In this document: piece after piece, positions 1-41,392 of the stretch | Position numbering within the stretch: position 1 is the stretch's first letter | How the letters are laid out: every line of letters starts with the position of its first letter | Source of the DNA: Puniceicoccales bacterium | Lineage (GTDB): Bacteria; Verrucomicrobiota; Verrucomicrobiia; Opitutales; LL51 | Direction: 5' to 3' | Length of the DNA: 51,556 nucleotides | NCBI GenBank assembly: GCA_031270475.1 | Contig: JAISXO010000023.1 | Span: 1 to 51,556 of the forward strand | Translations under genes and position numbers: made by a program | The notes under the pieces: model-generated | Seen by the model: the letters and a program-made list of their open reading frames with translations, nothing else | Told to the model about the DNA's origin: nothing | Databases searched by the model: none

Positions 1-140
1 CAACGAAGTTGCTGGCCCGGCACTTTGTGCCGGGCAGGCCTTTTGGCCTGCTGGCCACGGCTCAAGGCCGTGGCCGACCTTTGATTCAGGGACTGGATCC
101 CCTGGAAGGGTCTGGGCCAGTGCCCCGGAAGGCAACCGAC
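1..140. repeat. GC-rich multi-hairpin mosaic repeat, copy A (inside the dnaE reading frame; truncated by the window edge)
   Basis: GC-rich island with consecutive perfect hairpins: GCCCGGCAC-ttt-GTGCCGGGC, CAGGCC-tttt-GGCCTG and GGCCACGGC-tcaag-GCCGTGGCC. It shares the GCAAC-GAA-GTTGC and GGATCCCCTGGAA modules with the copy at 2885-3047. Confidence 0.7.
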
Positions 141-996
141 GGAAAACGGGGAAATGATTTTCGCCGTAGCGCAAGGTAAAATCACACATATCGGCGATGA
201 ATTGGGTATGATCGAGGCATTCGGGATGGTCGCCAAACAACTGTTCCATTTCTTCCCGGGATTTGATATAGAGCTGGTGTGTATTCATACGGAAGCGATT
301 GATATCGGTCACTTTGGCGACGGTCTGAATACAGAGCAACTGGTCATGAGCCTCCCAATCTTCCTGAAAGACGTAGTGAGAATCGTTAGTTGCGACAGGT
401 TTCACGCCATTTTTTTCGGCCAAATTAAAAAGAATGGGGAGAATAGTCTGTGATTCGGGCATGCCGTGATTTTGGACTTCGATGAATAGGCGATCTTTGC
501 CAAAGATTTCCATGAGCCAATCGAGACCTTTTTGAGCGGATTCGAGGTCATTTTGCAACGCCATCGCCGAAAGATACCCTTGGTAACATCCCGTCAAACA
601 AATCAGACCTTCTCCGTAGGCTGCGATGGTCTGCCAATTCACGCGTGGTCGGTAATAGAAACCTTTCCTGTGGGAGATGGAAACGAGTTTCGATAAATTT
701 TTATATCCCGTTTCGTTCATGACCAGGAGGCCCATGTGGTAAAGTGGGAATTTTTCTTTTTGGGTATAATCCCGGTCGAAAGTGGTATAGAGTTCACAGC
801 CGACGATGGGTTTAATGCCGAATGTTTTGGCATATTTAAAGAAATCGGGGACACCGAATAGATTGCCGTGGTCGGTCATTGCGAGAGCGTGCATGCCCAA
901 TTCCTTCGTCCGTGCGAAGAGGCGATCCATACGGCAGGCCCCATCAAGTAAACTGTAATCGGTATGAACGTGCAAATGGACGAAATTTTTCGACAT
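1..996 (-). CDS. dnaE: DNA polymerase III alpha subunit, N-terminal PHP-domain part (partial; ORF runs off the window start)
   Basis: Own minus-strand translation from the ATG at complement of 994-996 gives MSKNFVHLHVHTDYSLLDGACRMDRLFARTKELGMHALAMTDHGNLFGVPDFFKYAKTFGIKPIVGCELY...ATNDSHYVFQEDWEAHDQLLCIQT...FTLRYGENHFPVF. This is colinear with the DnaE PHP domain. There is no stop down to nt 1, so the ORF is absent from the track. The last ~47 codons (nt 1-140) are encoded by a GC-rich repeat. Confidence 0.85.
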   Translation of the reverse strand, partial: MSKNFVHLHVHTDYSLLDGACRMDRLFARTKELGMHALAMTDHGNLFGVPDFFKYAKTFGIKPIVGCELYTTFDRDYTQKEKFPLYHMGLLVMNETGYKNLSKLVSISHRKGFYYRPRVNWQTIAAYGEGLICLTGCYQGYLSAMALQNDLESAQKGLDWLMEIFGKDRLFIEVQNHGMPESQTILPILFNLAEKNGVKPVATNDSHYVFQEDWEAHDQLLCIQTVAKVTDINRFRMNTHQLYIKSREEMEQLFGDHPECLDHTQFIADMCDFTLRYGENHFPVFRRLPSGALAQTLPGDPVPESKVGHGLEPWPAGQKACPAQSAGPATSL

Positions 997-1072
997 GCAC
1001 GGATTATACGAATTTACTCCGACCTGGGTCAACGGCGAAAATATTTTTTTGAAAAATTATTCGTAAAAAAAC

Positions 1073-1110: not shown

Positions 1111-1824
1111 ATGAAGTCAAAGTATTATTTATTGTTTGGGCTGTCCTCTTTTTTTATGGGAAATGTTGTATATGGAACAAGGATTATGCTCGAAGTACCT
1201 TTTGTATCAAAGGTACCATTGTTGCCACAAGATGCTAAACTGTCGCCACAGGTCATTAAAAATTTATTAAGAACCGAAGGAACACTCAATACCTATGCCA
1301 TACTTACGGGAATGGTTGAAGAAAAACTCCTGTTAGTAAAAAATAATATCGATTGGATCAATGATCTAATCGAGAGGATTAGGGAAACCTACGAAAATAA
1401 CCTCGAAATGCGAGCTATTCTCGATAATCTGAATGAAAAGCAAAAAAAATTGAGTGACAGTTACCAAATTTGCTCCAAGGAATTGAAACATGAACCTCAA
1501 GGGAATTGTAGCTTGCTCGTCAACGTCATAAAAGATCTGAGGGAAGTACAGGACGCTATTCAGGAATTTAGAAATTCTGCGAGAAACCTTCTGAATCATA
1601 TACGTTTATTTCTCCCCCAAAATCAAAACACATCGGAATTTCAAAGGTTGCGCTGCAGTAAGTCAGAAACAAAACTTATGGATCAACACGGATCCGAAAT
1701 GACAGCAATAACTGACATAATCATTAACAACGTGTTAATCCCCGCATTGGAAGCTTTTAACGAACGTGCCCGCGAAGAACGGGGACGAGGTATTATCGGA
1801 AGCCAAAGCAAACGCGACCTATAA
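1111..1824 (+). CDS. Hypothetical secreted coiled-coil protein
   Basis: Track ORF 964-1824. The internal Met at 1111 gives MKSKYYLLFGLSSFFMGNVVYG, a signal-peptide-like N-terminus. The longer start would overlap the dnaE start and the promoter. The remainder is K/E/L/N-rich and helical. No family recognised. Confidence 0.55.
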   Translation: MKSKYYLLFGLSSFFMGNVVYGTRIMLEVPFVSKVPLLPQDAKLSPQVIKNLLRTEGTLNTYAILTGMVEEKLLLVKNNIDWINDLIERIRETYENNLEMRAILDNLNEKQKKLSDSYQICSKELKHEPQGNCSLLVNVIKDLREVQDAIQEFRNSARNLLNHIRLFLPQNQNTSEFQRLRCSKSETKLMDQHGSEMTAITDIIINNVLIPALEAFNERAREERGRGIIGSQSKRDL

Positions 1825-1838
1825 ATTTTTTTATCCAT

Positions 1839-1869
1839 ATAAACGTTCCAGATCTTCTAGAACGTTTAT
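1839..1869. terminator. Hairpin between convergent genes (ATAAACGTTC-11 nt loop-GAACGTTTAT), followed by TTTA on the plus strand
   Basis: Perfect 10-bp inverted repeat located between the stop at 1824 (+) and the stop at 1893 (-). Confidence 0.45.
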
Positions 1870-1892
1870 TTACGAAAAAATTCTCCTAAAAA

Positions 1893-2870
1893 TTACAGTT
1901 GAAAGTAAACTGAAAGGAAGAATATACCGACAAATGCAAGAAGGAGAATAAGACCTTCGATGCGGTCAATCTCGCGTTTCGTCATAAAAAAGCGTCCCAT
2001 CAGGGCCGTTAAAAAGACCAAGAAAGGAATGCCAATGTGGCATAGGGTTAAATTAACCGGTACAGGGTGAATGAGCGCGCAAATACCCGTGATCATCAAA
2101 CTATTAAAAATATTGGAACCGATAATATTACCGGTACAGATCGCACCGTAACCACGCAATGCAGCAACTAGCGAAATAACAATTTCTGGAATACTCGTCC
2201 CAATGGCAACAATGGTAAATCCAATCAATGCGTCTGACCAGCCCAATGTATGGGCAATTTTCACACTGCTGTCGATGACAAGTTTGGCTCCCATAAATAA
2301 TAGTAAAAGTCCAAGAATAGAGAGCCCCAATGCTTTTTCCAGGTCAATTTCCTGAACGACCGTTGGATTTGCGTCTTCTTCCTCCTTTGCCCAGCGATCG
2401 TTTTTGCAAACGAAATAGAGATATACAATATCCAGGAGAATAAAAATTATTCCCAGAATAAATCCTATGGGAACAAAAATTGCACAAATACCAAAACAAC
2501 CGGTAATGATGCAAAGAAAAGGTATTTCGACTTCAACGATACGAGAAGTAATGGTAAAGGGCTTTATGAGAGCAACGAGACCACCCGCTAGACCTATATT
2601 GACGAGGTTACTGCCAATGACATTTCCAGCGACGATTTCGGGATGATGATCCACCGTGGCGATGAGTGAGGTAATCAGTTCCGGAGCGGAGGTCGAAATT
2701 GCAACGACGGTCATGCCAATGACAAATTGACTAATGCCAAAACGAATGGCCATGGCACTCACCCCGCGACACATAAAATCACCACCGTAGGCTAAAAAGG
2801 AAAAGCCTAAAATCGCGAAAAGAATGACTTCCCACATACTCCTAATGTAATAAGTAATTGTTAAAAGCAA
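1893..2870 (-). CDS. Ca2+/Na+ (CaCA family, YrbG-like) antiporter
   Basis: 325-aa polytopic membrane protein with duplicated alpha-repeat motifs: GTSAPELITSL...GNVIGSNLVNIGL and GTSIPEIVISL...GNIIGSNIFNSL. Confidence 0.85.
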   Translation of the reverse strand: MLLTITYYIRSMWEVILFAILGFSFLAYGGDFMCRGVSAMAIRFGISQFVIGMTVVAISTSAPELITSLIATVDHHPEIVAGNVIGSNLVNIGLAGGLVALIKPFTITSRIVEVEIPFLCIITGCFGICAIFVPIGFILGIIFILLDIVYLYFVCKNDRWAKEEEDANPTVVQEIDLEKALGLSILGLLLLFMGAKLVIDSSVKIAHTLGWSDALIGFTIVAIGTSIPEIVISLVAALRGYGAICTGNIIGSNIFNSLMITGICALIHPVPVNLTLCHIGIPFLVFLTALMGRFFMTKREIDRIEGLILLLAFVGIFFLSVYFQL

Positions 2871-2884
2871 GCAATTTGTGGTAA

Positions 2885-3047
2885 GTCACTTCCTAAGAAC
2901 TCCTCGCCCCTAGAATCCTTGCCTGGAGATCCAGCCCCTGGAACAGGAGTCCGGCCCGGCAGCTCCGGGCAACGCCCGGGGCTGCCGGGGGGAAGGCCCG
3001 ATCCCAATAGGGATCGGGCAACGAAGTTGCCTTGCCCTTTTTTTGTG
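2885..3047. repeat. GC-rich multi-hairpin mosaic repeat, copy B
   Basis: Contains CCTAGAATCC..CCTGGAGATCCAGCCCCTGG, GGCCCGATCCC-aata-GGGATCGGGC and GGCAAC-gaa-GTTGCC. The track ORFs 2861-3079 and 2893-3108 are P/G/R-rich read-through of this repeat. Confidence 0.75.
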
Positions 3048-3108
3048 GAGCTGAGGAACATGAGAATGGCCGCAACCATGGTGCCATAGGAATTCGCAAC
3101 GGTCCCAT

Positions 3109-3240
3109 TTAAGTTATTGTTAAAAATCGTGGGACCTTCGCTGCTTTCGGATAGGCGATAAAGTAATCATTGATCGCTTGGTAAGCGTTGATGATATTTT
3201 CGTAGTCTCTTTTATACCGTTCGTTGCCATTAACATCCAT
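3109..3240 (-). CDS. Small hypothetical ORF (43 aa)
   Basis: Own translation: MDVNGNERYKRDYENIINAYQAINDYFIAYPKAAKVPRFLTIT. It is preceded by GAGGAG 4 nt upstream of the ATG. It falls below the track length cutoff and has no recognisable family. Confidence 0.2.
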   Translation of the reverse strand: MDVNGNERYKRDYENIINAYQAINDYFIAYPKAAKVPRFLTIT

Positions 3241-3340
3241 GGCACTCCTCGAGTGCTACTTAACCTACTTAAGCTTCACCATGGGTTGCTCCTCCCTCAT
3301 TTTAGGGGTCTCAACAACCATAAATTACGCATCCATGGCT

Positions 3341-3580
3341 TTAGTCATGGCGGTCCCTAGGAACGGAGTCCTGTTTTAGGCTATTCCAATTGGAAAGTTT
3401 GTTATGGCCTCTTGACGTCAATTCATTATAGAATACTTGGTCATCGTTTTTGGCAACGGTATCATTGCCAACATATGTCTTACTACTTCCAGAGGCGAAA
3501 CTTGCATAGACCCAGGATGCTCTATGTTTTGCGTGGTCTTTTTGCATCCCCAAAATTCTATTCAAAATCCTCTCTCTCAC
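3341..3580 (-). CDS. Hypothetical protein (79 aa, GTG start abutting the stop of the upstream pseudopilin gene)
   Basis: Track ORF. It directly follows the 3581-4024 gene on the same strand. No family recognised. Confidence 0.3.
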   Translation of the reverse strand: MRERILNRILGMQKDHAKHRASWVYASFASGSSKTYVGNDTVAKNDDQVFYNELTSRGHNKLSNWNSLKQDSVPRDRHD

Positions 3581-4024
3581 TCATACACTGATCCCTAAAC
3601 TATTCGCGACAACGGATTGTTTTATCTCGACATGCGGCAGCGTGAGGCGCGGAACTTGATTTTTGCTATCCCAGGGATAAAGTTCATAAATCGTTTCTGT
3701 GACACTTTCATTTGCTCCGGCTTCAACCTCTTTACGTTCCAATACAAAAATAGCCCCATCGAACCCGCTTGCCGTATCCGCGATCACAAAAATTCCATTC
3801 CTGTATCCGCAGTAAGCCTGATTACTAGTATCCAGTTCCGGCGCTTTGGGGAATACACTCAAAACATTTTGCACGTTTTTCGCCGTATTGGTCAGGAGCA
3901 TTTCCTGTATCCGCTTTTCCGTTTTACCCGTGCTTTCCGCCATGTGCGTCAAAAGTATCGGTAGCGAAAATCCTAGAATCCCAACCGCTAATACAATTTC
4001 CAATAACGAAAATCCCCGTTTCAT
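3581..4024 (-). CDS. Prepilin-type N-terminal cleavage/methylation domain protein (pseudopilin-like)
   Basis: The N-terminus MKRGFSLLEIVLAVGILGF matches the G-F-(T/S)-L-(I/L)-E prepilin signature followed by a hydrophobic helix. Confidence 0.65.
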   Translation of the reverse strand: MKRGFSLLEIVLAVGILGFSLPILLTHMAESTGKTEKRIQEMLLTNTAKNVQNVLSVFPKAPELDTSNQAYCGYRNGIFVIADTASGFDGAIFVLERKEVEAGANESVTETIYELYPWDSKNQVPRLTLPHVEIKQSVVANSLGISV

Positions 4025-4665
4025 ATTGCTCCTTTTATTGCATCTTTTGACTCCAATATCACTCTACTGCCCATCACCGTAACCATCAATCCGCTAATAT
4101 TCGTGTCTTTTTTTAATTTTATTCCATTTCCGACCTTTGCACCGTAACCAATGGCTATAATAGTCGCGGCTCCGGAAAATAGGCGGCCTTCCGGCGTGAA
4201 TGTAAAATCATAACCGCTGACAGATTCTCCCTGTAAAACGGCTTCCTCATCGAGATAGGTGTACCCCGAGAGATCTTTGTTATCAAGATGTTTCGAAAGA
4301 TTATCTAAGGGTATAATAAATGTGTGTTCGGGCAGTAAGATTTCACGTTCCGTTATCCAGCCATTTTTCGTTTGTTTTATGATTGCTATGCGCCGAAATT
4401 TTAAATCCGATGAGGTGTCGATGAAAATTTTCGCATAAATATTGCCTGCGATGGCCTGTTCGCGTGCATTGTCAAAACTTGACGCAAGAAGTGCTATCGC
4501 TGTCTTAATTTGCTGATTTTCATTATTTCCCGTGACATTTAGTTGCACTAGGAAAAATAGGAATATCGATACCAATGTGATCACCGTTATTAGCTCGATC
4601 AATGTAAAACTATTGATTTTCCTCCCCACCGGGTCGTATAATGAAAACATTCTATAGTTTGGCAA
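4021..4665 (-). CDS. Prepilin-type N-terminal domain protein, GspH/FimT-like pseudopilin
   Basis: Contains ...KINSFTLIELITVITLVSIFLF then ...ALLASSFDNAREQAIAGN, which is typical of GspH/FimT-type minor pseudopilins. It overlaps the downstream gene by 4 nt. The exact start is uncertain. Confidence 0.6.
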   Translation of the reverse strand: MPNYRMFSLYDPVGRKINSFTLIELITVITLVSIFLFFLVQLNVTGNNENQQIKTAIALLASSFDNAREQAIAGNIYAKIFIDTSSDLKFRRIAIIKQTKNGWITEREILLPEHTFIIPLDNLSKHLDNKDLSGYTYLDEEAVLQGESVSGYDFTFTPEGRLFSGAATIIAIGYGAKVGNGIKLKKDTNISGLMVTVMGSRVILESKDAIKGAI

Positions 4666-4683
4666 ATGTTAATTGTGTGTTTA

Positions 4684-4845
4684 CTGGGGCGCTGCCCCAG
4701 ACCCCGCCAGGGAATACCATTCCCTGGACCGGGATTCCCGGCTCGCCGGGCACAGCCCGACTGATCCGGGAACGGCCGGAGGCCCCGCGGCGAAGGCGCG
4801 GGACCTTCCCCAGTGAGGTTAAAAAGTCGTGATTCCTTTCGGACT
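4684..4845. repeat. GC-rich multi-hairpin mosaic repeat, copy C (between divergent gene starts)
   Basis: Hairpins CTGGGGC-gct-GCCCCAG, CCAGGGAAT-acc-ATTCCCTGG and CCCGG-ctcg-CCGGG, plus a CCCCGCGGCGAAGGCGCGGG module. The track ORFs 4599-4883(-) and 4641-4832(+) are read-through. Confidence 0.75.
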
Positions 4846-6165: not shown

Positions 6166-8400
6166 TTACAAAAAATCTAAAGCATCAACGTCAAAGGCTA
6201 GATAAATACCCGACGGAATAGTGAGTTGACTGCGAAAAAATTGTAATTTTTCGACGATTTTACTTACGCTCCGTACAAAAATTAAAATGGAATAGCGATA
6301 GCGATTTTGCAACTTCTCTAAAGGGGAAACCATTGGTCCTCGAATTTCAACCGAATCATTTATAAGAAAATCAACCAATTTTTTAGAAAAATTTTCAGAA
6401 AACAGCTTTAACAATTCCAAATTTTCTCCCGATAAATTTACATTAATAATGTGCCGATAAGGCGGGTAACCAAACATTTCTCGCATTTTTAATTCGCTCA
6501 CGGAAAATTCCGCGTAATCCGCATTTTTGGAAAGGAATATAATCTCGTTCCCGGGAATGTGCGTTTGAATGACGACTTCTCCAGAAATTTCTCCGCGTCC
6601 AGCCCTGCCAGCTACTTGCACCAACAGTTGAAAAGTCCGCTCATTTGCTCGAAAATCTTGCTGATTAAGAGAGCCATCCGCATTTAATAACCCTACAAGT
6701 GTCACATTCGGGAAATCTAATCCCTTCGCAATCATCTGCGTTCCGAGTAAAATATCTATTTTTTTTCTGCGAAAATCCGATAAAAAATAAATAAATTCAT
6801 GTTTTTTTCCCATAATATCCGAATCGATGCGTGCGGCACGCGCTTGAGGAAAAAGCTCGTTCACCATCTGTTCAACGCGCTGCGTTCCGATACCATTGTA
6901 AAGAATTTCTATAGTCCCACACTTTGGACACTTACTGTGTAATGCTTCCCGATAACTACAAAAGTGACAAATTAGTAAATTTTTTGTTTTATGATAGGTC
7001 AATGGAATACTACAATGAGGGCAAGTCGCAATAAAATCACAACATTTACACAAAACGCTTGGCGCATATCCTCGGCGATTAAGAAAAAGTATGATTTGCT
7101 CCTTTTTCTCGAGGCGTTCTTCCATTTTTTTTATAAGCAATCGGGAAAAAACATTTTTTTCATAACGCATATCGACGACATGTACCAACGGTAGTTGACA
7201 ACGATCGATGCGGCGAGGAAGCATTTCAAGTTTATAATTTTTAAATCTTGTGTTAAAATAAGATTCGATCGAAGGAGTCGCAGAGCCTAATAAACAAACG
7301 GCATCATACAATTTCGCGCGGTAAATCGCCACATCGCGGCCATGATAGCGGGGGTGTTCACCCTGCTTGTAAGCCGATTCGTGCTCCTCGTCGACGATAA
7401 TTAATTGTAAATTATTGAGGGGCAGAAAAACTGCCGAGCGAGCCCCGACGGCAACCGTCGAAGCCGCGTTTAAAGCCCCTTGCCAGGCATCGCGTCGCTC
7501 TCCGTCCGATAGGCCGCTATGCCAAACCAAGACCGGTAGTCCCTCGAAACGGGAACGCAATTTTTCCACAACTTGAGCCGTCAGAGCAAGCTCCGGCAAC
7601 AGGTATAAAACTGAACCACCTCTGTTCAAAACGTGACGAATCAACTCGATATAAACCTCCGTTTTTCCCGATCCAGTCACGCCATGCAGCAGGTGTACAT
7701 TGAAAATTTTGCTCGCCAAACTCCTTGTAACTGATGCCACAATTTGTGTCTGCTCCGGCGTTAGCGTTATATTTTCACTGCATTTATTTAACAAATCAAG
7801 CGCGCCGTAGGCGATTCGTTCCTGTCGCTGAAAAGTTTCGTAGATAATATTTTTTCGTAGTAAAGCCTCTAAAATATTCCGTGAAAATTTTTCTAAAAAT
7901 TCGCTTTTTGCAATAGATGGATTTCGCCGCAAAAATTGTAAAGCTTCGTATTGTTTAGGAAATTTTTTTTTATCAATTGCGGGTTCATTTTGGGATGCAA
8001 ATTGCAAACAAGAAATTAATTTAAAGGGAATATTTTTACGAATTACCGATGGAATCGCCGTATCAATCACAGAGAATAAATCGCAAAGATAATACTTCGC
8101 AATCCAAAAATAGAGCTTAATGAGTGTTGCATCGGCAATCGGAATGTCGTAAACTGTGCTCAAAATGGGTTTCAAAGGATAAGAGAGCGTTGCGGGATTT
8201 TTTTCATCGAGCGCAATTACGAGTCCTATTTTTTTAGATTGGCCGACGATGATATTGGCGAGTGAACCGACTTGGACCATCCCATGTAAAGCATCGGGAA
8301 CCGCATAAAATAACGCGCGATCGATAGGAGCAAAAATCAAAACTTCGGCAACAAGCATCGTGTTTATTATTCGAGAGTATATTTTTTTTTTATATTGCAA
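6166..8400 (-). CDS. priA: Primosomal protein N' (replication restart helicase PriA)
   Basis: Walker A LLHGVTGSGKTEVY, DEEH box (IIVDEEHESAYKQ), Cys-rich zinc module (CKCCDFIATCPHCSIPLTYH...CHFCSY...CPKCG), 744 aa. Confidence 0.92.
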   Translation of the reverse strand: MQYKKKIYSRIINTMLVAEVLIFAPIDRALFYAVPDALHGMVQVGSLANIIVGQSKKIGLVIALDEKNPATLSYPLKPILSTVYDIPIADATLIKLYFWIAKYYLCDLFSVIDTAIPSVIRKNIPFKLISCLQFASQNEPAIDKKKFPKQYEALQFLRRNPSIAKSEFLEKFSRNILEALLRKNIIYETFQRQERIAYGALDLLNKCSENITLTPEQTQIVASVTRSLASKIFNVHLLHGVTGSGKTEVYIELIRHVLNRGGSVLYLLPELALTAQVVEKLRSRFEGLPVLVWHSGLSDGERRDAWQGALNAASTVAVGARSAVFLPLNNLQLIIVDEEHESAYKQGEHPRYHGRDVAIYRAKLYDAVCLLGSATPSIESYFNTRFKNYKLEMLPRRIDRCQLPLVHVVDMRYEKNVFSRLLIKKMEERLEKKEQIILFLNRRGYAPSVLCKCCDFIATCPHCSIPLTYHKTKNLLICHFCSYREALHSKCPKCGTIEILYNGIGTQRVEQMVNELFPQARAARIDSDIMGKKHEFIYFLSDFRRKKIDILLGTQMIAKGLDFPNVTLVGLLNADGSLNQQDFRANERTFQLLVQVAGRAGRGEISGEVVIQTHIPGNEIIFLSKNADYAEFSVSELKMREMFGYPPYRHIINVNLSGENLELLKLFSENFSKKLVDFLINDSVEIRGPMVSPLEKLQNRYRYSILIFVRSVSKIVEKLQFFRSQLTIPSGIYLAFDVDALDFL

Positions 8401-8664: not shown

Positions 8665-10836
8665 ATGGGTAAGCGATTTTTATTGATTGGAATTGGCGGC
8701 ATGGGAATGGCTCCTCTTGCGCTCTATTTACGCCAACAAAACCATGATGTTTATGGCTATGACGACGCTTTGCCGACTTTTTTAGAGCATTTTTTAGAGC
8801 AGCAAAAAATTATTATTTGTAAAGTTTTCCCTGAAAATATTGACTATGTTGTTTATTCTAGTGCGATTTCCAGTGGTCATCCATGGTTAATTGAGGCGAA
8901 AAAGCACGGCATTGAAACGTGTCTTCGCGGTAAATTTTTAGCGAAATCTTGTAATGGAAAGAAAATGATTGCCATAACAGGTTCCCATGGAAAAACGACA
9001 GTGACGGGAATGCTTATCGATTGTTTACATAACTGTGACTATATTTTAGGAGGATTTTTTCGAGACGAAAAAAAGTTACCCGCCAAATATGCGTCGAAAA
9101 CCGATTTTTTTATTTGTGAAGTGGATGAAAGCGATCACACAATCGAACATTTTTCTCCCCATGTGGCGGTGGCACTCAACCTGGAAGACGACCATTTAGC
9201 TCAATATGGTAGTTCCGAAAATTTAGATTTAGCATTTGAAAAATTTTTCAAAAATACTCAACGGCTCATTGTTCTTCCCGACGGAGATATGCGATTGGAA
9301 AATATTATAAAAAATGCTAATGTTACAGCGGGAATTATAAAGGTAAAAATTGCCAATAATTTACATGGATTTGATGAAAATTTATTAATGTTGCAAGGTA
9401 TTCTTGGGGCACTTCTTGGGGCACTTAAAGCGGATGGACTTAAAATGGATGCCCTCACAAAGTTTTCTCCCTTATTTCGTCGCAACCAATTTTTAGGAAG
9501 ACTTGATTGGGGAGAGGGTATTGAAATTTGGGCCGATTACGCTCATCATCCAACGGAAATTACTCAATGTATTGCACGTTTTAATGAGGAAGGAAAAAGG
9601 ATTGATTTCGTTTTTCAGCCACATCGCTACACGCGCACACAGCAATATGCCCAGGCTTTTGCGAAGGCTTTTGCCGATAAAAATTGCACTTTTTTGCCCG
9701 TATATTCAGCCGGCGAAAAATTTCTGGCCGATGGTACAACGGAGACAATTTTAAAACATTCCCCTAAGGATAATAAGTTTAATTTTATCACATCTCTAAA
9801 TGATTTTTTCATAAAAAATAATGGTAATAAATTGCAAAATTTAAATAAAAATATATTTCCTGACAAAATTATATTCACTGGGGCTGGCGATATTTTCCGT
9901 CAAGCGCAAGCGTGGTTTTTTAAACAACAAATTCAATTATTGAAGATTTTTTTTACAAAGCAAGGAATTCCTTTTTCTGAAAATATTTCCGCTAAAAAAT
10001 ACAACACTCTCCGCATTGGCGGAATCATTGCACTCATGGTTGAGGCGGAAAATATCGAAATGCTTGCCGTTGTTTTACAGGAACTTACAAGGATAAAAAT
10101 ACCTTTTTTAGTCGTTGGTTATGGCTCAAATCTTTTGATCGATGATTTATGCGGCGTTTGGATTTCACTTCAAAAAATGCCTTCAGTTTTTACATTTAAA
10201 GGAAATTTGATTGAAGTTTCTGCGGGCTTTCCTTTACCGATTTTTTGCAAGCAAATTGCAAAACTTGGGCTCCAAGGAAGCGAAGAATTGGCAGGTATTC
10301 CTGGAACAATTGGTGGCGCATTATATATGAATGCGGGGACATCTCGACAAACGATTTCGGACAAACTTGTATCTATTGATGTAATAAATTCATCGGGCGA
10401 CCGTCAAACTATTAGCAAATCGCAAATTAATTTTACATACAGGAAAGGTTTTCGCGGAGGCATTATTTTGAGGGCAAAATTTCAATTTATAGATAGACAA
10501 GCTCCGGAAATCCTTTTGGAAAAAATTCATAAAAAAATGTTATGGCGCCGGGAATTTCAGCCCCAACAGCCTAATGTCGGTAGTATTTTTAAAAATCCAC
10601 AAAATTCGCCTGCAGGAATATTAATCGACCAAGCAAATTTAAAGGGGACTCAAATCGGCGGGGCAAAAATTTCTGAAAAACATGCTAATTTTATCATCAA
10701 TGCAGACGGCCAGGCGACAGCTAATGACGTTAAGCAACTCATCAATTTAGTTCGTCAAAAAGTTTTTGAACAACACGGAATCTTTCTTGAACGGGAAATT
10801 TTATTTGCATCGGAAATTTTTAAAACATATTTCTAA
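8665..10836 (+). CDS. murC/murB: Fused UDP-N-acetylmuramate--L-alanine ligase / UDP-N-acetylenolpyruvoylglucosamine reductase (MurC-MurB)
   Basis: The N-terminal part has GIGGMGMAPLALYL and GSHGKTTVTGM (Mur ligase). From about nt 10000 it has YNTLRIGG...VVGYGSNLLIDD...AGIPGTIGGALYMNAGT...FTYRKG...GSIFKNP (MurB FAD-binding fold). It is one uninterrupted 723-aa ORF. Confidence 0.9.
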   Translation: MGKRFLLIGIGGMGMAPLALYLRQQNHDVYGYDDALPTFLEHFLEQQKIIICKVFPENIDYVVYSSAISSGHPWLIEAKKHGIETCLRGKFLAKSCNGKKMIAITGSHGKTTVTGMLIDCLHNCDYILGGFFRDEKKLPAKYASKTDFFICEVDESDHTIEHFSPHVAVALNLEDDHLAQYGSSENLDLAFEKFFKNTQRLIVLPDGDMRLENIIKNANVTAGIIKVKIANNLHGFDENLLMLQGILGALLGALKADGLKMDALTKFSPLFRRNQFLGRLDWGEGIEIWADYAHHPTEITQCIARFNEEGKRIDFVFQPHRYTRTQQYAQAFAKAFADKNCTFLPVYSAGEKFLADGTTETILKHSPKDNKFNFITSLNDFFIKNNGNKLQNLNKNIFPDKIIFTGAGDIFRQAQAWFFKQQIQLLKIFFTKQGIPFSENISAKKYNTLRIGGIIALMVEAENIEMLAVVLQELTRIKIPFLVVGYGSNLLIDDLCGVWISLQKMPSVFTFKGNLIEVSAGFPLPIFCKQIAKLGLQGSEELAGIPGTIGGALYMNAGTSRQTISDKLVSIDVINSSGDRQTISKSQINFTYRKGFRGGIILRAKFQFIDRQAPEILLEKIHKKMLWRREFQPQQPNVGSIFKNPQNSPAGILIDQANLKGTQIGGAKISEKHANFIINADGQATANDVKQLINLVRQKVFEQHGIFLEREILFASEIFKTYF

Positions 10837-16437: not shown

Positions 16438-16926
16438 ATGAATATGGATTACAAAAAAGAAGTAAATAACTTACTTGGGGAACTAGGAAAGGTACTAGAT
16501 TTGTCGTCGCTTGAACTCGATATAAATAATCATTGTCTCATCCTATTCGACGATAAAATCGTCCTCAATCTAGAACTTCAAGAGGAAAAAGGTGCCCTAA
16601 TCGTCTATGCTTATATCAGTGTTGTACCATTTGCCGGAAAAGAATTGATTCTAGAAATTTTATTGGAAGCAAATTTCTTTTGGAGAATTTCCCACGGTGC
16701 AACTTTTGCAATCGATAAACAAACTCAGACTCTCATCTTAGAACAAAAATTCCCTCTTCCCATGGAAAAACCGGAAAGTTTTCAGGATGATTTAGGAATT
16801 TTCGTCGATGTGGTGGAAGCATGGATGAAAAGGATTGACGATATTTGTACCGAAGCTGAAATGTTATTAGAAACAAATTTGAAGGTAGAAAAAACGGAAA
16901 AAAAATATGGATCATGGAAATATTAG
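16438..16926 (+). CDS. Type III secretion class I chaperone-like protein (CesT/SycE/Slc1 family pattern)
   Basis: Small acidic protein with the family pattern LLGELGKVLDLSSLELDINNHCLILFDDKIVLNLELQEEKGALIVYAYISVVP...ELILEILLEANFFWRISHGATFAIDKQTQTLILEQKFPL...ESFQDDLGIFVDVVEAWMKRI. Confidence 0.65.
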   Translation: MNMDYKKEVNNLLGELGKVLDLSSLELDINNHCLILFDDKIVLNLELQEEKGALIVYAYISVVPFAGKELILEILLEANFFWRISHGATFAIDKQTQTLILEQKFPLPMEKPESFQDDLGIFVDVVEAWMKRIDDICTEAEMLLETNLKVEKTEKKYGSWKY

Positions 16927-19382: not shown

Positions 19383-20416
19383 TAAACGCCTTTGAGTTTC
19401 ATAGTAAGGAATTTTTATGGTTATTGCTTCTTTTACCAGTTATTGCCTACGTTGGTAAGCGCTGCAAAAGGCAAGCCACGCTTTCTTTTCCCCACACGGA
19501 ATTTTTGAAAAAAGCGACGGATTTTCATCGTCCACAATCCCAGCGCTTTTTAAATTTTCTACGCTTTTCAGCCCTTACCCTATTGATTTTTGCTCTGGCG
19601 CGTCCCCAGCTTGTCCATCGTTTTACGGAATCCAATTCCAGCGGTGTCGATATTATGCTCGCGGTAGACATTTCCTCTTCGATGATGGGGCTCGATTTCC
19701 AGGAGAGAAATGAACGAAAGTTGATCACGCGTCTAGATATCGCCAAACAGGTGACCGATGAATTCATTCAAAATCGCCCCAATGATCGCATCGGCATGTG
19801 TGCTTTTGCAGGAGATGCTTACTTGATCAGTCCCGTTACGATGAATCACGATTGGCTGGAAAGTAATTTAAAACGCTTACATGTTGGCCTGGTAGAAGAT
19901 GGGACGGCGATTGGGAATGCCATCGCCATGTGTGCGAATCGTCTCAAAAATTCGGAGTCTAAGACGAAACTTATTGTCTTGCTAACCGATGGTGGTAATA
20001 CGGCAGGTAATATAGCTCCCCTAATTGCTACGGAAATGGCAGCGGCCTTGAATATTAAGATTTACACCATCGGTATTGGTAAAAAAGGTGTTATTCTATT
20101 TGCATGTCCCGATGAGCAGGGGAATATCGCTATGGATCCTTTTGGCCAACCGGTTGTCATTCAAGCGCAGGCCGATCTCGACGAAACTTTACTCGAAGCC
20201 ATTGCCCAAAAGACGGATGGACAATTTTTCCGTGCGGAAAATAAAAAGCAATTGAGCGATATTTATACGAAGATTGATCAATTGGAAAAAACCGATATAA
20301 AAGTTAAACAATTTGCCACCGCGGAGGACTTTTTCATCTGGCTCATCGGATGCGCCCTTCTACTCCTACTCTTGGAGTGTTTTTTACGTTATTTAAAATT
20401 CCAAAAGATACCATGA
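19379..20416 (+). CDS. batA: VWA domain protein BatA
   Basis: N-terminal TM, MIDAS motif DIMLAVDISSSM, ...LLTDGGNTAG, C-terminal TM. Confidence 0.8.
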   Translation: MINAFEFHSKEFLWLLLLLPVIAYVGKRCKRQATLSFPHTEFLKKATDFHRPQSQRFLNFLRFSALTLLIFALARPQLVHRFTESNSSGVDIMLAVDISSSMMGLDFQERNERKLITRLDIAKQVTDEFIQNRPNDRIGMCAFAGDAYLISPVTMNHDWLESNLKRLHVGLVEDGTAIGNAIAMCANRLKNSESKTKLIVLLTDGGNTAGNIAPLIATEMAAALNIKIYTIGIGKKGVILFACPDEQGNIAMDPFGQPVVIQAQADLDETLLEAIAQKTDGQFFRAENKKQLSDIYTKIDQLEKTDIKVKQFATAEDFFIWLIGCALLLLLLECFLRYLKFQKIP

Positions 20417-22413
20417 AATTCGGAAATATGTTATTTTTGTTTCTGTTGCCCCTGTGGGTTGCTCTGGTGCTATTCATAATCGGAGGTGGACAAAAACGTC
20501 GATCGTGTCGGCTCAAACAAATGGTTGCCCAACGGCTCTTTCCTCTGTTACTTTCGAACTATAGTGCCGGGAGACAAAATCTAAAAAATTTGCTCTTCCT
20601 ATGCGCAATCGCACTCATTGGATTCGCCCTAGCCGCGCCAAAATGGGGCCATAGGCAGGAAGAGCGCTATGTGAAAGGGGTCGATTTATTGATTGCGGTA
20701 GATGTTTCCAAAAGTATGCTCGCGGAAGATATAAAACCCAATCGCCTTGAACGTACGAAATTGGCCATTTTAGATCTCATTAAATCTTTTGTGGGGCATC
20801 GTGCCGGCCTCATCGCCTTTGCTGGGGATTCTTTTTTGCAATGTCCCCTTACCCTCGATCATAACGCCTTTATCCAGAGTTTGAATGCCATCGATACGGA
20901 TACCATTCCTCTGCCGGGGACGGCCATCAATGGAGCGATTGAGTTAGCCGAAAAGGTCTACGATCAAACACAAAATCAGAAATTACTCTTTCTCTTTTCC
21001 GACGGTGAAGAATTGGCCGACGGCGCCATCGAAGGTGCTAAACGGGCAAAGGAACAAAATGTCTGCATTTATACGATCGGCATCGGATCAACGGAAGGCG
21101 TTACGATTCCCATTACGGACTATCGAACGGGAAAAGTAAGTCCCCTATGCGATAGAAAAGGACAAATCGTAAAAACTTCCCTCGACGAAAAGACGCTCCA
21201 AGAAATTGCTGAAATAACCGGTGGCCAATACTACCACCTATCGCCCGCTGCCCTATCGCATTTGCAAAGGGATATTCTCACGCATTTTCCATTTCTCAAA
21301 GAAAATTCCAAAGGAAATAAGTATATCGAAAAGGTTTATCAGGAACGCTACCAGCTATTTTTACTCCTAGGATTTCTTTTACTGCTACTGGAAATGCTTC
21401 TGAGTAATTATAAAAAATCGGAAAAATATTCAATTTCAATTTACTATCAACTTTCGTCACTCATTTTTATTTTTCTTTTTTCATTGAGTAGCCTATCAGC
21501 AAAAGAGAGTAAGGGAGAAACCTGCTATAAAAATGGAGAATTTGAAAAAGCATTGGAATTTTATGATCAACAGTTGGCCAAAAAACCGGACGATCAGGAG
21601 CTATTCTACAATAAAGGGACGACCTCTCTTTCCCTCAAACGATACGAAGAAGCAATCGATTGTCTCAAGAAATCAATTCCCAATGCGCCCCTAGCGTTAC
21701 AAAAAAAAGCATTTTATAACCTGGGGAATACGTTTTTCGAGCAAGGACAAAGCTTACCTGAATCGCAAAAAACATTGGAAAAATGGAAGGAAAGTTTACG
21801 TTATTTTCAATCAGCCGTAGACCTAGATGGACAGTTCGAGGAAGCTAAAAAAAATGCAAAATACGTTGAAGAGCAGATTAAAAAGCTAGAAGAACAGCAA
21901 AAATCCCAAAATCAACAGGAATCCGACAAGCAGAAAGATCAGCAAAACCAAGATCAACAGCAGGATCAAAACGATCAACAGAAAAACTCAGACCAACAGA
22001 AATCCGACGACCAAAAAAATCGAGATGATCAACAGAAACCGGATCATCAAAACCAAGATCAACAGCAGGATCAAAACGACCAACAGAAAAACTCAGATCA
22101 ACAGAAATCCGATGACCAGAAAAATCAAGATGATCAACAGAAACCGGATCATCAAAACCAAGATCAACGGCAGGATCAAAACGACCAACAGAAAACTCAG
22201 ACCAACAGAAATCCGATGACCAGAAAAATCGAGATGAGCGGCAGAAAAATTCAGACCCAAAAAAAACCGATAAACTACAGAAACCTCAACCCCAACGGCA
22301 ATCGGATGCCCCTGAAAAGCCGGAAAATTCAGAAAATCAACACCCCGAACAACCTTCCGATAAACGCAACGAATCGCAAAGTAAAAATAATGATAAAAAT
22401 CAACCCAAAATGA
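20413..22413 (+). CDS. batB: Fused BatB (VWA) - BatC (TPR) protein, as-read frame; the C-terminus is out of frame after a 1-nt homopolymer difference near 22192-22195
   Basis: The start at 20413 overlaps the batA stop (ATGA). MIDAS motif DLLIAVDVSKSM, two TM segments, TPR repeats (GEFEKALEFYDQQLAKKPDD...), then a Q/D/K-rich 35-aa tandem repeat. The tail after 22195 (TQTNRNPMTRKIEM...) is the repeat read in the wrong frame. Confidence 0.75.
   Translation: MKFGNMLFLFLLPLWVALVLFIIGGGQKRRSCRLKQMVAQRLFPLLLSNYSAGRQNLKNLLFLCAIALIGFALAAPKWGHRQEERYVKGVDLLIAVDVSKSMLAEDIKPNRLERTKLAILDLIKSFVGHRAGLIAFAGDSFLQCPLTLDHNAFIQSLNAIDTDTIPLPGTAINGAIELAEKVYDQTQNQKLLFLFSDGEELADGAIEGAKRAKEQNVCIYTIGIGSTEGVTIPITDYRTGKVSPLCDRKGQIVKTSLDEKTLQEIAEITGGQYYHLSPAALSHLQRDILTHFPFLKENSKGNKYIEKVYQERYQLFLLLGFLLLLLEMLLSNYKKSEKYSISIYYQLSSLIFIFLFSLSSLSAKESKGETCYKNGEFEKALEFYDQQLAKKPDDQELFYNKGTTSLSLKRYEEAIDCLKKSIPNAPLALQKKAFYNLGNTFFEQGQSLPESQKTLEKWKESLRYFQSAVDLDGQFEEAKKNAKYVEEQIKKLEEQQKSQNQQESDKQKDQQNQDQQQDQNDQQKNSDQQKSDDQKNRDDQQKPDHQNQDQQQDQNDQQKNSDQQKSDDQKNQDDQQKPDHQNQDQRQDQNDQQKTQTNRNPMTRKIEMSGRKIQTQKKPINYRNLNPNGNRMPLKSRKIQKINTPNNLPINATNRKVKIMIKINPK
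21943..22250 (+). repeat. Intragenic 105-bp tandem repeat, about 2.9 copies (QNQDQQQDQNDQQKNSDQQKSDDQKNxDDQQKPDH)
   Basis: Repeat units begin at 21943, 22048 and 22153, with exactly 105-bp spacing. They are near-identical at the DNA level. Confidence 0.9.
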
Positions 22414-24968: not shown

Positions 24969-25670
24969 GTGCTGAAAGCTTTTTACCCAGGACCTTTGGA
25001 AGAGAGATCGCTTGTCCATTTAGATCGGGAGGAAACGCACCATCTCTTTCACGTTTTGCGAGCGACTAGAGGCGAAAAAGTCATTCTTCTCAATGGTCAC
25101 GGCTACTATGCCGAAGGGCATATCCATGAAACACAGGGAATTGTAATCGATGGCGTTCATTTTGCAGAGAGCAGTAAAATTACATTGTGTCCTGCCCTTT
25201 TAAAAAATAAAGCCATGGACTTTCTCATTCGTGAGGCGACGGCGATCGGTGTTGCAAAAATTATTCCCATTTATACCCAAAATTCAGAGGTCAAAATTCA
25301 AAACGTCGCTGAAAAACAAATGCATTGGAATCACATTGCCCGTGAGGCTTGTAAACAATCGGGAAATCCGTACTTGCCATTTATTGAAATGCCTAGAAAA
25401 TTAAAAGACTTAGCATGTTCCATGCCAGTATTTGTCTCTGCATTGCGGGGAAATCCAAAAAATATTTTTCATTACCAGTCGGAAATTAAAAACAATCCCA
25501 TTGCCATTTTAGTTGGTCCCGAGGGTGATTTTTCAGAACGGGAATATCAGTATTTCGAGCAAAGTAATTTTCATTTTATCCACCTCGGGCGATATGTCCT
25601 TCGCGCAGAAACTGCTGCGCTTTACCTTTTGAGTGTCATTGATTGTTGTCTAAGGACTGCGCATCCCTAG
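24969..25670 (+). CDS. rsmE: 16S rRNA (uracil1498-N3)-methyltransferase
   Basis: HHLFHVLRATRGEKVILLNGHG, ...ILVGPEGDFSEREY..., LGRYVLRAETAALYLLSV. The last 7 codons and the TAG stop lie inside repeat copy D. Confidence 0.85.
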   Translation: MLKAFYPGPLEERSLVHLDREETHHLFHVLRATRGEKVILLNGHGYYAEGHIHETQGIVIDGVHFAESSKITLCPALLKNKAMDFLIREATAIGVAKIIPIYTQNSEVKIQNVAEKQMHWNHIAREACKQSGNPYLPFIEMPRKLKDLACSMPVFVSALRGNPKNIFHYQSEIKNNPIAILVGPEGDFSEREYQYFEQSNFHFIHLGRYVLRAETAALYLLSVIDCCLRTAHP

Positions 25671-25935
25671 GATTCTCGCCATAGAAATCCATCTCCTTTA
25701 CCGAAAAAATTTATCTTTGCCCGCCCCCGGGCTTGCCCGGGGCGGGTAAAAAGGCCCTGCCCTCGTCGCTTCGCGACGAGGGCAAGACGACTTCGTCGTC
25801 CGATCCTTACTAGGATCGGGCCTTTTTAATCCCCGCGGCGAAGCCGCGGGGGCAAATTTTCTGCGGCCCAGCTAGCACAAATTGTGCTTGGCTGGGCCGC
25901 AGAAGTGAGGTCAAGGGGTCTGATTCCTTATGGGA
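25650..25935 (+). repeat. GC-rich multi-hairpin mosaic repeat, copy D (longest)
   Basis: Modules in order: CTAAGGACTGCGCATCCCTAGGATTC; CCCGCCCCGGG-ctt-GCCCGGGGCGGG; CCTCGTCGC-ttc-GCGACGAGG; GACGAC-ttc-GTCGTC; CCGATCC-ttacta-GGATCGG + TTTTT; CCCCGCGGC-gaa-GCCGCGGGG; a CTGCGGCCCAGC...GCTGGGCCGCAG long hairpin; and the terminal TGATTCCTTATGGGA. Confidence 0.85.
25800..25827 (+). terminator. Intrinsic-terminator-like hairpin plus T5 inside repeat D (downstream of rsmE)
   Basis: CCGATCC-ttacta-GGATCGG, then GCC and TTTTT. Confidence 0.5.
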
Positions 25936-28965: not shown

Positions 28966-29201
28966 AGGCTGCACGCCCTTTAGAATTTCCGCCAAAGGAT
29001 CCATCCTCTGGACCGGTATTTCAGACCAGTCTATGTACAAAGGCCCGGAGCTATTTTAAAAAGGCCCGCCATCGGCGCGAAGCGCCGAGGGCAAGGCGAC
29101 TTGTCGCCCGATCCCAGTAGGGATCGGGCCTTTTTAATTCCCCGCGGCTTCGCCGCGGGGGGCTTGTGAAGAGATCAATGAATTCATGACTCTTTATGGG
29201 A
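28962..29201 (+). repeat. GC-rich multi-hairpin mosaic repeat, copy E (same orientation as D)
   Basis: CTAAAGGCTGCACGCCCTTTAGAATTTCCGCC..., then 29056-29139 colinear with 25746-25830 (TAAAAAGGCCC..GGGCAAGGCGACTTGTCGCCCGATCCCagtaGGGATCGGGCCTTTTTAAT), then CCCCGCGGC-ttc-GCCGCGGGG and the terminal TGACTCTTTATGGGA. Confidence 0.85.
29106..29135 (+). terminator. Intrinsic terminator-like hairpin inside repeat E (downstream of the helicase gene)
   Basis: GCCCGATCCC-agta-GGGATCGGGC (10-bp stem), then C and TTTTT. Confidence 0.6.
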
Positions 29202-31017: not shown

Positions 31018-31154
31018 CACTTTTTTATTATCAAAAATATCCAACAAAGCAAGTTTTACTTGCGTTTAGCGGAAAAATTTTGGAGAAATATTAAAATAGT
31101 CCCATTTCCTACGAGGAATTGCAAATTTCTTGGCCTATTAACGCCTAACTATGT

Positions 31155-31225
31155 GCCTCATCCTCGTCGCGAAGCGACGAGGATGAGGCGAAAAAAGCCC
31201 CGCGGCTTCGCCCGCGGGGTTCGGG
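31155..31225. repeat. GC-rich hairpin repeat, copy F (two-hairpin short form)
   Basis: GCCTCATCCTCGTCGC-gaa-GCGACGAGGATGAGGC (16-bp stem, 31155-31189) plus CCCCGCGG-cttcgc-CCGCGGGG (31198-31219). Confidence 0.8.
31189..31219 (-). terminator. Intrinsic terminator of rpsA
   Basis: The minus strand reads CCCCGCGG-gcgaag-CCGCGGGG followed by CTTTTTTCG, 33 nt after the rpsA stop. Confidence 0.7.
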
Positions 31226-31251
31226 GAAAATATTTTTTAAAAAAAGAAAGA

Positions 31252-33060: not shown

Positions 33061-33159
33061 GACGGAGAAATTTTTTTGCCAAGCTGGGCCTGAATTTTTA
33101 CATGCCGCTCGCTCCCACCCTCTACTCTCCAGCCTTGAAAAAAAATTGGTGTTTGTCAA
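33061..33159 (-). repeat. TTGACA-headed conserved module, copy 1 (about 130 nt upstream of the rpsA ATG)
   Basis: The reverse complement reads TTGACAAACACCAATTTTTTTTCAAGGCTGGAGAGTAGAGGGTGGGAGCGAGCGGCATGTAAAAATTCAGGCCCAGC. This aligns almost without gaps (a single-base indel) with 41183-41262. Confidence 0.6.
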
Positions 33160-33283
33160 ATTATTTCTTAAAATTATCGAAAAAACAAACAAACTCAAAA
33201 ATTTTTCTTGACTTTGTTTTGACATTGTACTAGGACACAAACTCTTGGTTATTTCCGTAAATAGTCGTTTCAAAATTCCGCTA

Positions 33284-38359: not shown

Positions 38360-38445
38360 GGGTTGTCGCTCCCTTAGAATCCTCCGCCAGGAGAGCCCTC
38401 TCCTGGATCGAATCTTTTTCCTCCGCGGCGAAGCCGCGGGGGCTG
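38357..38445. repeat. GC-rich hairpin mosaic repeat, copy G (short composite)
   Basis: CCCTTAGAATCCTCCGCCAGGAGAGCCCTCTCCTGGATCG plus CCGCGGC-gaa-GCCGCGG. It starts at the ppdK stop codon and lies between convergent genes. Confidence 0.8.
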
Positions 38446-41166: not shown

Positions 41167-41182
41167 ATTATTTTAAAATTAC

Positions 41183-41262
41183 TTGACAGCTGTCGATTTC
41201 TTTTCAAAGCTGGAGAGTAGAGGGTGGGAACGAGCGACACGTAAAAAATCTCAACCCAGCGT
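41183..41262 (+). repeat. TTGACA-headed conserved module, copy 2
   Basis: TTGACAGCTGTCGATTTCTTTTCAAAGCTGGAGAGTAGAGGGTGGGAACGAGCGACACGTAAAAAATCTCAACCCAGC. Confidence 0.6.
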
Positions 41263-41392
41263 AAATGCCTTACTTTTACTTTTTACGTTTTTATGCTTTG
41301 TTGCTTTGTTTAAACATAGAAAAATTATCGCAATTTCATAAATTCTAAAAAATATTTTTGAAAAATGTTTTCTGAAAACGTTTAAAAAAAAC

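Follow-up and report, generated by a model that had tools for sequence, protein, structure and literature searches.

The stretch of DNA analysed here (hereafter the window) is the complete 51,556-bp contig JAISXO010000023.1 of a Puniceicoccales bacterium, so that the record holds no sequence beyond position 1, and its left end carries the beginning of a minus-strand dnaE gene, encoding the alpha subunit of DNA polymerase III, which is followed in the same reading frame by a GC-rich palindromic repeat. From position 996 down to position 1 the translation runs for 332 codons without a stop, as MSKNFVHLHVHTDYS...FTLRYGENHFPVF and then RRLPSGALAQTLPGDPVPESKVGHGLEPWPAGQKACPAQSAGPATSL up to the edge, just as the initial annotation had read it, and the product on record for the window (P0001) is partial, 332 aa long and assigned to this 51,556-bp contig. 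The fragment spans positions 3-287 of the DnaE equivalog profile of NCBIfam, and its PHP part is 82-92% identical to nine Puniceicoccales loci. HMMER alignment against the PDB confirmed the proposed colinearity with the E. coli PHP domain: the residues ...FTLRYGENHFPVF align to ...VTVRLGEYFLPQF of E. coli alpha in an alignment covering alpha 187-281, and homology to E. coli alpha picks up again at S287 (STEDYL), which places the insertion site in the five-residue PTGDM linker, between F281 and S287.

The 141 nt that follow the PHP part have a GC content of 66%, as against 46.5% in the rest of dnaE and 41.7% in the whole window. GC content stays at 63-66% over positions 1-158, and the GC-rich edge stretch folds with an energy of -77.7 kcal/mol (z = -5.45) that none of 200 shuffled sequences matched; together with two perfect hairpins, these values bear out the repeat described at positions 1-140. 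Frames 1 and 2 are both stop-free over the 141 nt and frame 3 holds two stops, as the initial annotation had cautioned when it noted that two of the three frames are open. The first bases of the window, CAACGAAGTTGC, are a truncated copy of the hairpin GCAAC-GAA-GTTGC, which recurs at positions 3018-3031, and the decayed module closest to the PHP part translates as GALAQTLPGDPVP and shows unpaired cells in its helices 1 and 2.

To place this insert in context we used nine Puniceicoccales (Verrucomicrobiota) metagenome-assembled genomes, L001-L009, obtained from a scan of species-representative genomes and bearing isolate names styled like those of termite-gut bins. An in-frame insertion predicts that palm-domain homology resumes in the same frame beyond the element, and this is what is seen in all eight relatives with DNA past the site, where the open frame leads on to palm-domain sequence (...SNFDYLKNLC...GFVDYFLIVWDF...). 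The dnaE open reading frame (ORF) of these eight relatives measures 1149-1306 codons (L005 runs off its contig at 1196) and contains the full DnaE domain set (PHP, palm/thumb/fingers and HhH) in one frame, of which the window shows PHP only, its contig ending there; the L003 contig likewise terminates inside its dnaE insert. The number of residues between FPVF and NF(D/T/I)YLK is 10 in L008 and 49, 53, 66, 68, 85, 168 and 170 in the seven others. The orthologue of the window's 141 nt lies inside an intact dnaE in both L002 (9328-9468) and L004 (11102-11242), with 87-91% DNA identity over the last 45 nt and a mean column identity of 88% over the full alignment, and in both genes CGATCCC...GGGATCGGGCCTTTT comes after the GCAAC-GAA-GTTGC module. 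None of the ten copies has a stop in the dnaE frame, and the other sense frames of the 504-510-nt inserts hold 3-10 stops. The L002 orthologue (P0121) passes the DnaE equivalog model NF004226 (1291 bits, cutoff 1002) and fails the DnaE2 model NF004225 (525 bits, cutoff 939), so that by profile scores the gene classifies as that of the replicative DNA polymerase III alpha (DnaE1) and not of the error-prone DnaE2. As a separate observation, the DnaE proteins of the insert-bearing clade (P0121-P0131) are without a precomputed match to PF01336 (OB-fold), which many other Opitutales DnaE (P0132 onward) have.

The putative continuation of the window's gene is P0123, an 880-residue, N-terminally partial DnaE, encoded on a 16,746-bp Joint Genome Institute contig, that begins LPDPFGIGPF... 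and covers profile positions 291-1124. The window ends ...AGPATSL and L004 reads ...AGQATSLPDPFGIGPFEEP...; P0123 thus starts at the residue where the window stops. Its identities to L001-L009 run parallel to those of the PHP part of the window, highest for L001 and lowest for L008, and no gene on record has exactly this product. If P0123 is the partner of the window fragment, the insert would comprise 74 residues in a protein of about 1211 residues. The frame would then read ...ATSLPDPFGIGPF...SNFDYLK across the contig end, and the predicted insert of about 220 nt would read ...AGPATSLPDPFGIGPF...LLQESNFDYLK in frame.

Table 1. Features of the dnaE locus and of the hairpin family in the window. 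L002 and L004 denote two of the relatives.
Feature	Position	Strand	Basis
Hairpin GCAAC-GAA-GTTGC, truncated by the contig end	1..12	.	Same module at window 3018-3031 and in L002/L004 dnaE
dnaE insert, first 47 in-frame codons, cut by the contig end	1..141	-	Open frame, GC, orthology to L002/L004
Hairpin GCCCGGCAC-TTT-GTGCCGGGC	15..35	.	Perfect 9-bp stem; conserved in L002 and L004
Hairpin GGCCACGGC-TCAAG-GCCGTGGCC, helix 3 of the dnaE insert	50..78	.	Perfect 9-bp stem
Decayed terminal double-hairpin module GGGGCACTGGCCC-AGACCCTT-CCAGGGGATCCAGTCCCTG	84..129	-	Aligned to L002/L004 dnaE modules and window 4684-4730
dnaE codons 1-285, PHP domain of DNA polymerase III alpha	142..996	-	Ends ...GENHFPVF; translation, E. 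coli alignment, NCBIfam
Promoter-like TTGACC-18-TATAAT just 5' of the dnaE ATG	1003..1032	-	11/12 matches, best of the scan; consensus match only
Same-family island 5' of Na/Ca-exchanger gene	2896..3040	+	GC 0.67; terminal-module match
Same-family intergenic island	4673..4837	+	Module match E 9e-8; two perfect hairpins
Terminal module, 8 nt past the pheS stop codon	17531..17579	-	Module profile
Same-family island; first hairpin encodes last six residues and stop of RsmE-like gene	25650..25922	+	Four perfect hairpins
Same-family island; first hairpin holds UvrD-like helicase stop codon	28962..29173	+	Hairpins, module profile, dnaE-insert match
Intergenic GC-rich hairpin pair, 16-bp and 8-bp stems	31152..31233	.	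GC and hairpin scans
Same-family island; first hairpin holds PPDK stop codon	38356..38449	+	Hairpins, module profile

Hairpins of the same kind are dispersed over the window (Table 1). Perfect GC-rich hairpins with a stem of at least 7 bp number 16, against a mean of 1.05 and a maximum of 3 in 150-nt block shuffles; 14 of them fall outside coding sequence and two in dnaE, and the GC-rich islands, apart from the dnaE insert, are all intergenic or located at gene ends. Direct DNA matches connect these islands to the dnaE inserts of the relatives: positions 374-412 of the L004 insert match window 3032-2993 at 95% over 40 nt (E 4e-10), L002 insert positions 254-282 match window 4684-4712 at 97% over 29 nt (E 2e-8) and 394-435 match window 29120-29160 at 88% over 42 nt, and window 25863-25922 is matched by the end of the L001 and L003 inserts. 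The order of modules is identical in dnaE inserts and intergenic islands. We captured the terminal module, a double hairpin, in a profile of the form (CTGGGGC..GCCCCAG or CTAAGGGC..GCCCTTAG)-ACCCCG-(CCAGGRGNY..RNCYCCTGG)-ACC, which detects 45 copies in the 169 kb made up of the window and L001-L009. Many of the copies form inverted pairs 160-280 nt apart (for instance at L003 3777-4040, 6310-6559 and 7820-7981), and such pairs also occur within dnaE (L001 3134-3348, L003 10885-11097 and L005 7379-7555). The same profile gave no match in 872 kb from 88 unrelated outgroup DnaE loci, these being Joint Genome Institute (JGI) metagenome contigs retrieved in a junction-centred scan that was dominated by universally conserved DnaE motifs such as DFDIDFCM and returned no close relatives. 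Because island DNA matches the inserts, modules keep their order, inverted pairs lie inside dnaE and the outgroup yields no module, the sequence comparisons identify the dnaE insert as a copy, or nested copies, of a clade-specific dispersed element with inverted hairpin ends.

Across the 169 kb, 84 perfect hairpins were found, with TTC and GAA as the commonest loops (15 of the 84); the GC-GAA-GC stem closure recalls the very stable d(GCGAAGC) mini-hairpin. Two further patches considered as in-frame inserts, in priA (7417-7546, within the DEAD helicase domain) and in the UvrD-like gene (26827-26923), were rejected, as they hold neither hairpins nor module matches. Searching Rfam over the window returned only a signal recognition particle (SRP) RNA and no family on the GC-rich islands; a scan for terminators yielded 18 sites against 23 +/- 5 in shuffles, a result that says little on whether the islands act as terminators, and promoters and terminators over the window as a whole showed no enrichment over shuffles.

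Base pairing has been maintained through sequence change within this family. In a sequence-only alignment of 27 module copies, to which dnaE contributes eight, 99.6% of the cells of the second hairpin are paired, with 43 cells changed on both sides of the stem as against 15.1 +/- 2.4 in shuffles (0 of 500 reaching the observed value); five of its nine pairs covary, and sliding the partners lowers pairing to 29-53%. Among the three orthologous dnaE copies (window, L002 and L004), 90.6% of cells pair and three pairs are altered on both sides, all of them in the 13-bp helix 3.

The element also reaches into coding sequence at the ends of other genes. The stop codon of the PPDK gene lies inside a hairpin at window 38356-38362 (AAC TAG|GGG), as does that of the UvrD-like helicase gene at 28962-28968 (AAC TAA|AGG), and in the RsmE-like methyltransferase gene the hairpin at 25650-25670 encodes LRTAHP*, that is, the last six residues and the stop. 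The hairpin that supplies the stops of these three genes is the family's CTAAGG..CCTTAG variant; the element therefore reshapes not only the dnaE linker but also C-termini. Likewise, L003 1481-1573 holds a terminal module and two hairpins in the last ~30 codons of a 760-codon minus-strand ORF (1486-3765), the C-terminus of which thus appears, from its sequence, to be element-derived. At gene ends hairpin 1 commonly takes the form CTAAGGGC..GCCCTTAG, in which two of the three frames contain stops whichever strand is read; the form present in dnaE, CTGGGGC..GCCCCAG, is stop-free in every frame, as expected if insertions into an essential gene pass through a purifying filter.

Comparison of the relatives revealed turnover of the element. 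Ahead of the Na/Ca-exchanger gene, the spacer is AT-rich and without an island in L006 and L007, holds a decaying island of ~150 nt in L004 and one of ~300 nt in L002, and in L001, L003 and the window is occupied by islands of other composition and opposite orientation. Hairpins number 9-19 per locus in L001-L005 and 0-1 in L006-L009. The folding z-score of the dnaE insert follows a similar gradient, from -9.7 in L001 and -9.0 in L004 through -5.45 in the window and -3.5 in L005 to -1.9, -1.5 and +0.1 in the decayed copies of L006, L007 and L009, where remnants of the end modules are left in the peptide (..ALPQTSPEDGSSG.. and ..SPECEVPAEES). The dnaE inserts of L002 and L004 carry two 5' modules, and in L001 and L003 nesting may have left behind a 10-nt repeat, TCTTCTGGGG. 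The simplest history is one of early insertion followed by decay in some lines and by nesting, or replacement by fresh copies, in others, and a single site in these relatives thus appears to preserve the full life cycle of the element: empty, young with perfect hairpins, nested and decayed to a remnant. Beside this turnover we note a 1.8-kb segment of the window (3045-4840) with hairpin islands on both sides, containing two minus-strand ORFs without a Pfam match (3581-4024 and 4021-4665). The segment is unmatched in L001-L009, and L003 has just one island between the genes that flank it; an island-mediated indel may account for the segment.

At the protein level, the position of the insert is one where DnaE accepts additional sequence. 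The junction is 8-13 residues long in 50 of 60 aligned DnaE proteins of this class, L008 and the clade members P0129-P0131 have linkers of 9-12 residues, and solved Pol III alpha structures (HMMER search against the PDB) have nothing at the PTGDM linker site (281-287). Independent expansions of 31-51 residues at the PHP/palm junction occur in three unrelated lineages of other Opitutia (P0134, P0135 and P0210), where they are K/N/E-rich, of AT type, and in lineages that lack the hairpin family; aligned sequences of this kind indicate that the junction is permissive in general. An AlphaFold2 model of the L005 DnaE (mean predicted local distance difference test, pLDDT, 85.1; predicted template modelling score, pTM, 0.76) assigns the insert, residues 292-350, a pLDDT of 27-40 and no secondary structure, and gives pLDDT values of about 80-95 to the flanks, that is, PHP before it and the palm helix from residue 354. 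The insert is thus predicted to be a disordered surface loop. Between genome pairs, insert peptide identity is 55-68%, as against 93-96% in the flanks. Pfam searches with four inserts gave no match at E <= 1, an exhaustive phmmer search with the window's 47-residue insert over 1.84 billion representatives found no protein relatives, its only match, P0241, being a spurious tandem-repeat ORF, and a word-indexed protein search with the L002 element peptide returned one candidate and no match. A likeness of GALPQTPPG-type sequences to repeats of gut Firmicutes was also considered and dropped, as it had no search support. Because the peptide drifts and the hairpins decay in older copies, the insert looks like a tolerated passenger, and its effect on the polymerase is, as far as we can infer, near-neutral.

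Together, these results make it very probable that window 1-141 is an in-frame palindromic repeat in an intact replicative dnaE and that the apparent truncation is an artefact of assembly, in agreement with the in-frame insertion first suggested for this linker. The evidence that carries this reading comprises frame continuity and resumed homology, demonstrated in the relatives and extended by the L002 and L004 orthologues and P0123, together with the family identity of the insert, the covariation of its hairpins, its predicted disorder and its fast peptide drift. The window would hold the first two thirds of a multi-hairpin element located exactly at the PHP/palm boundary, whose units, of about 160-280 nt, consist of inverted double-hairpin ends enclosing cores of 7-21-bp GC-rich stems. 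Elsewhere the family fills intergenic spacers, often abutting or supplying stop codons, and the dnaE copy would be translated as a disordered surface loop in place of a linker normally 8-13 residues long. Within an essential gene only stop-free variants with a length that is a multiple of three would survive, and the open frame and the use of the CTGGGGC...GCCCCAG variant would therefore follow. The dnaE site would have been first occupied before most of the clade diverged and later re-colonised, nested and trimmed; young copies have intact hairpins and old ones have decayed to ordinary coding sequence. Transposition would depend on an enzyme supplied in trans, none having been found in the window.

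Several points weigh against this reading. In this genome the continuity of dnaE would follow from what is seen in the relatives; the only indexed public sequencing run contains relatives at 90-95% identity and not the source. A second dnaE may also be present in this genome. Taken by themselves, the three orthologous dnaE copies show no significant covariation (three double changes are attained in 49 of 500 shuffles), and the structural model was made from the relative L005 and not from the window protein. No transposase was detected by Pfam among the 37 ORFs of the window, and comparison of the empty site of L008 with filled sites revealed no clear target-site duplication. Because no transposase occurs in the window and no target-site duplication could be defined, the mobility of the element is inferred only from its copy number, its inverted ends and differences in presence and absence.

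Alternative explanations for the open frame were weighed against the same evidence. The frame runs off the contig with the end of the gene unseen, and two of three sense frames are open over 141 nt, as would be expected if dnaE were truncated or split, as a pseudogene or a two-piece gene, and its open frame were a by-product of composition. This was the other option raised by the initial annotation, and it now seems very unlikely: the window is a complete contig that ends within the repeat, the L003 contig stops inside its insert too, the PHP part is undecayed at 82-92% identity to relatives, DnaE resumes in frame in eight of eight relatives with downstream DNA, and P0123 provides a complementary fragment beginning at the junction residue. 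Ordinary low-complexity (Pro/Gly/Ala-rich) expansion of the linker by slippage, unrelated to the dispersed repeat, would accommodate both the independent growth of the junction to 31-51 residues in P0134, P0135 and P0210 and the predicted disorder and fast evolution of the insert peptide, but it is rendered highly improbable by the match of insert DNA to intergenic islands of the same genome, with 88-97% identity over 29-42 nt and an unchanged order of modules, by the complete units with inverted ends inside dnaE, by the covariation of the stems and by a hairpin load per locus that tracks insert type. DnaE hosts inteins in cyanobacteria, and a large insertion in this protein could in principle be an intein or an inserted folded domain. 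This explanation can practically be set aside, given four inserts with no Pfam match at E <= 1, a length that ranges over 49-170 residues among close relatives, a prediction of coil at pLDDT values under 50 and the lack of any protein relative in the 1.84 billion representatives.

Unlike these alternatives, co-option of the element accepts an insertion in dnaE and assigns it a role, the hairpins, as RNA or DNA, or the loop peptide regulating or modifying the polymerase, for instance through transcriptional attenuation, a translational pause between the PHP and polymerase domains, or changed fidelity. The site stays occupied across most of the clade, hairpin stability is very high in young copies, the stem of one module, with TTTT after it, resembles that of a terminator, and replication and repair genes are recurrent hosts of repetitive extragenic palindromic (REP) sequences (PMC3733652), all of which would fit such a role. 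We nonetheless consider co-option unlikely: in L006, L007 and L009 the hairpins decay to background while the insert persists, the peptide is poorly conserved and variable in length, L008 and P0129-P0131 manage with a 9-12-residue linker, and terminator sites are not enriched. Little credence is likewise given to the proposal that the linker is a recurrent homing target, new elements preferring resident copies, and that the structured segment affects dnaE expression or the polymerase; if this were true, the clade would gain a repeat-driven tuning of replication or mutation rate.

Among known systems, the Rickettsia palindromic elements (RPEs; Ogata et al. 2000) are the classic in-frame palindromic repeats (PMC10969869), and the analogy drawn with them by the initial annotation holds for behaviour and fails for family membership. 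Like RPEs, the element is a dispersed palindromic repeat of ~100-250 nt found between genes and in frame in housekeeping genes, where it adds a peptide at a structurally permissive position and leaves the host gene intact. Unlike RPEs, it resides in a different phylum, the Verrucomicrobiota, has no detectable sequence relationship to them, is GC-rich in an AT-rich genome and is built of strings of short hairpins with inverted double-hairpin ends. RPEs form one conserved unit with a conserved peptide and occupy many genes, whereas here the peptide drifts quickly and, within the 169 kb, dnaE was the one gene seen to be colonised internally; the R. conorii REP/RPE peptides VIPAKAGI, CHSRESGDP and DTVVKPRCD are unlike GALPQTPPGD..., although this comparison of listed peptides is a weak test of membership.

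Intragenic REPs are a closer precedent than RPEs; Opitutus terrae, one of their hosts, shares its class with the Puniceicoccales. Di Nocera et al. (2013) described a 38-residue REP dimer (934-971) in O. terrae dnaE2 and a nine-residue REP (853-861) in R. conorii dnaE, and speculated on a regulatory or modifying role of REPs in replication and repair genes (PMC3733652). Like GTAG/CGTC REPs, the hairpins described here are short GC-rich stem-loops present in many copies, for the most part clustered and extragenic, some of them in frame in replication or repair genes. Unlike in REPs, neither tag is conserved: among 84 hairpins GTAG occurs in 3 and CGTC in 5, at or below the rates at random positions (0.058 and 0.086); the encoded peptides differ from those of O. 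terrae, and the insert is far larger (49-170 residues) and located at the PHP/palm junction of the replicative DnaE1. No REP-associated tyrosine transposase (RAYT, of the IS200/IS605 type) was found by Pfam among the 37 ORFs of the window.

[quoted passage not shown] In contrast to MITEs, neither a clear target-site duplication nor, within the 169 kb, a parent insertion sequence sharing the same ends came to light, and the ends of this family, being hairpin pairs with covarying pairing, are more REP-like than MITE-like. The element thus behaves like RPEs and REPs but is a member of neither family. A further parallel exists in organelles. The GC clusters and double-hairpin elements of fungal mitochondria are GC-rich palindromes that spread in an AT-rich genome, sometimes in frame; being organellar and without sequence relationship to the present family, they offer a functional analogy only.

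In-frame palindromic repeats were thus already known, including those in R. conorii dnaE and O. terrae dnaE2. New here are the lineage, the family, the site at the PHP/palm junction of a replicative enzyme, how large the insert is and the succession of states preserved in close relatives. An essential replicative polymerase tolerates 49-170 extra residues, predicted to be unstructured, that derive from a selfish hairpin repeat, and the clade offers a natural series for the entry of palindromic repeats into coding sequence and their conversion into ordinary protein. There are also practical consequences, in that short-read contigs break in the element and dnaE is then annotated as a partial 'PHP domain-containing protein'; a dnaE broken in this manner can be mistaken for a pseudogene, and its pieces could confuse completeness estimates based on marker genes.

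The opposite end of the window is repetitive as well. A plus-strand ORF from about position 50200 to 51556, in which E, A, P and T abound, continues past the right end; it contains repeats of ~150-460 nt (families D3 and D5), and both ends of the contig therefore lie in repeats. Elsewhere, two tandem copies of a 105-nt unit (94% identity), accompanied by two weak partial matches (62%), occupy 21937-22304 within an ORF (20350-22413) encoding a 687-residue VWA/TPR (BatB-like) protein. AT-rich inverted repeats of 75-92 nt, 72-81% complementary and unrelated to the GC-rich family, pair 33092-33184 with 41176-41250 and 41368-41459, 5' of a ComEC-like gene and near the murG region. A plus-strand ORF of 723 residues (8665-10836) is a MurC-MurB fusion, combining MurC-type Mur ligase domains with the FAD-binding and C-terminal domains of MurB, and the plus-strand ORF at 16438-16926 has a match to the type III secretion chaperone family CesT (E 6e-20), its adjoining ORFs being without a Pfam match. 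The SRP RNA is of the bacterial small type (Rfam RF00169, 58.4 bits), lies at 47696-47794 on the plus strand and accounts for the GC-rich patch at 47709-47792.

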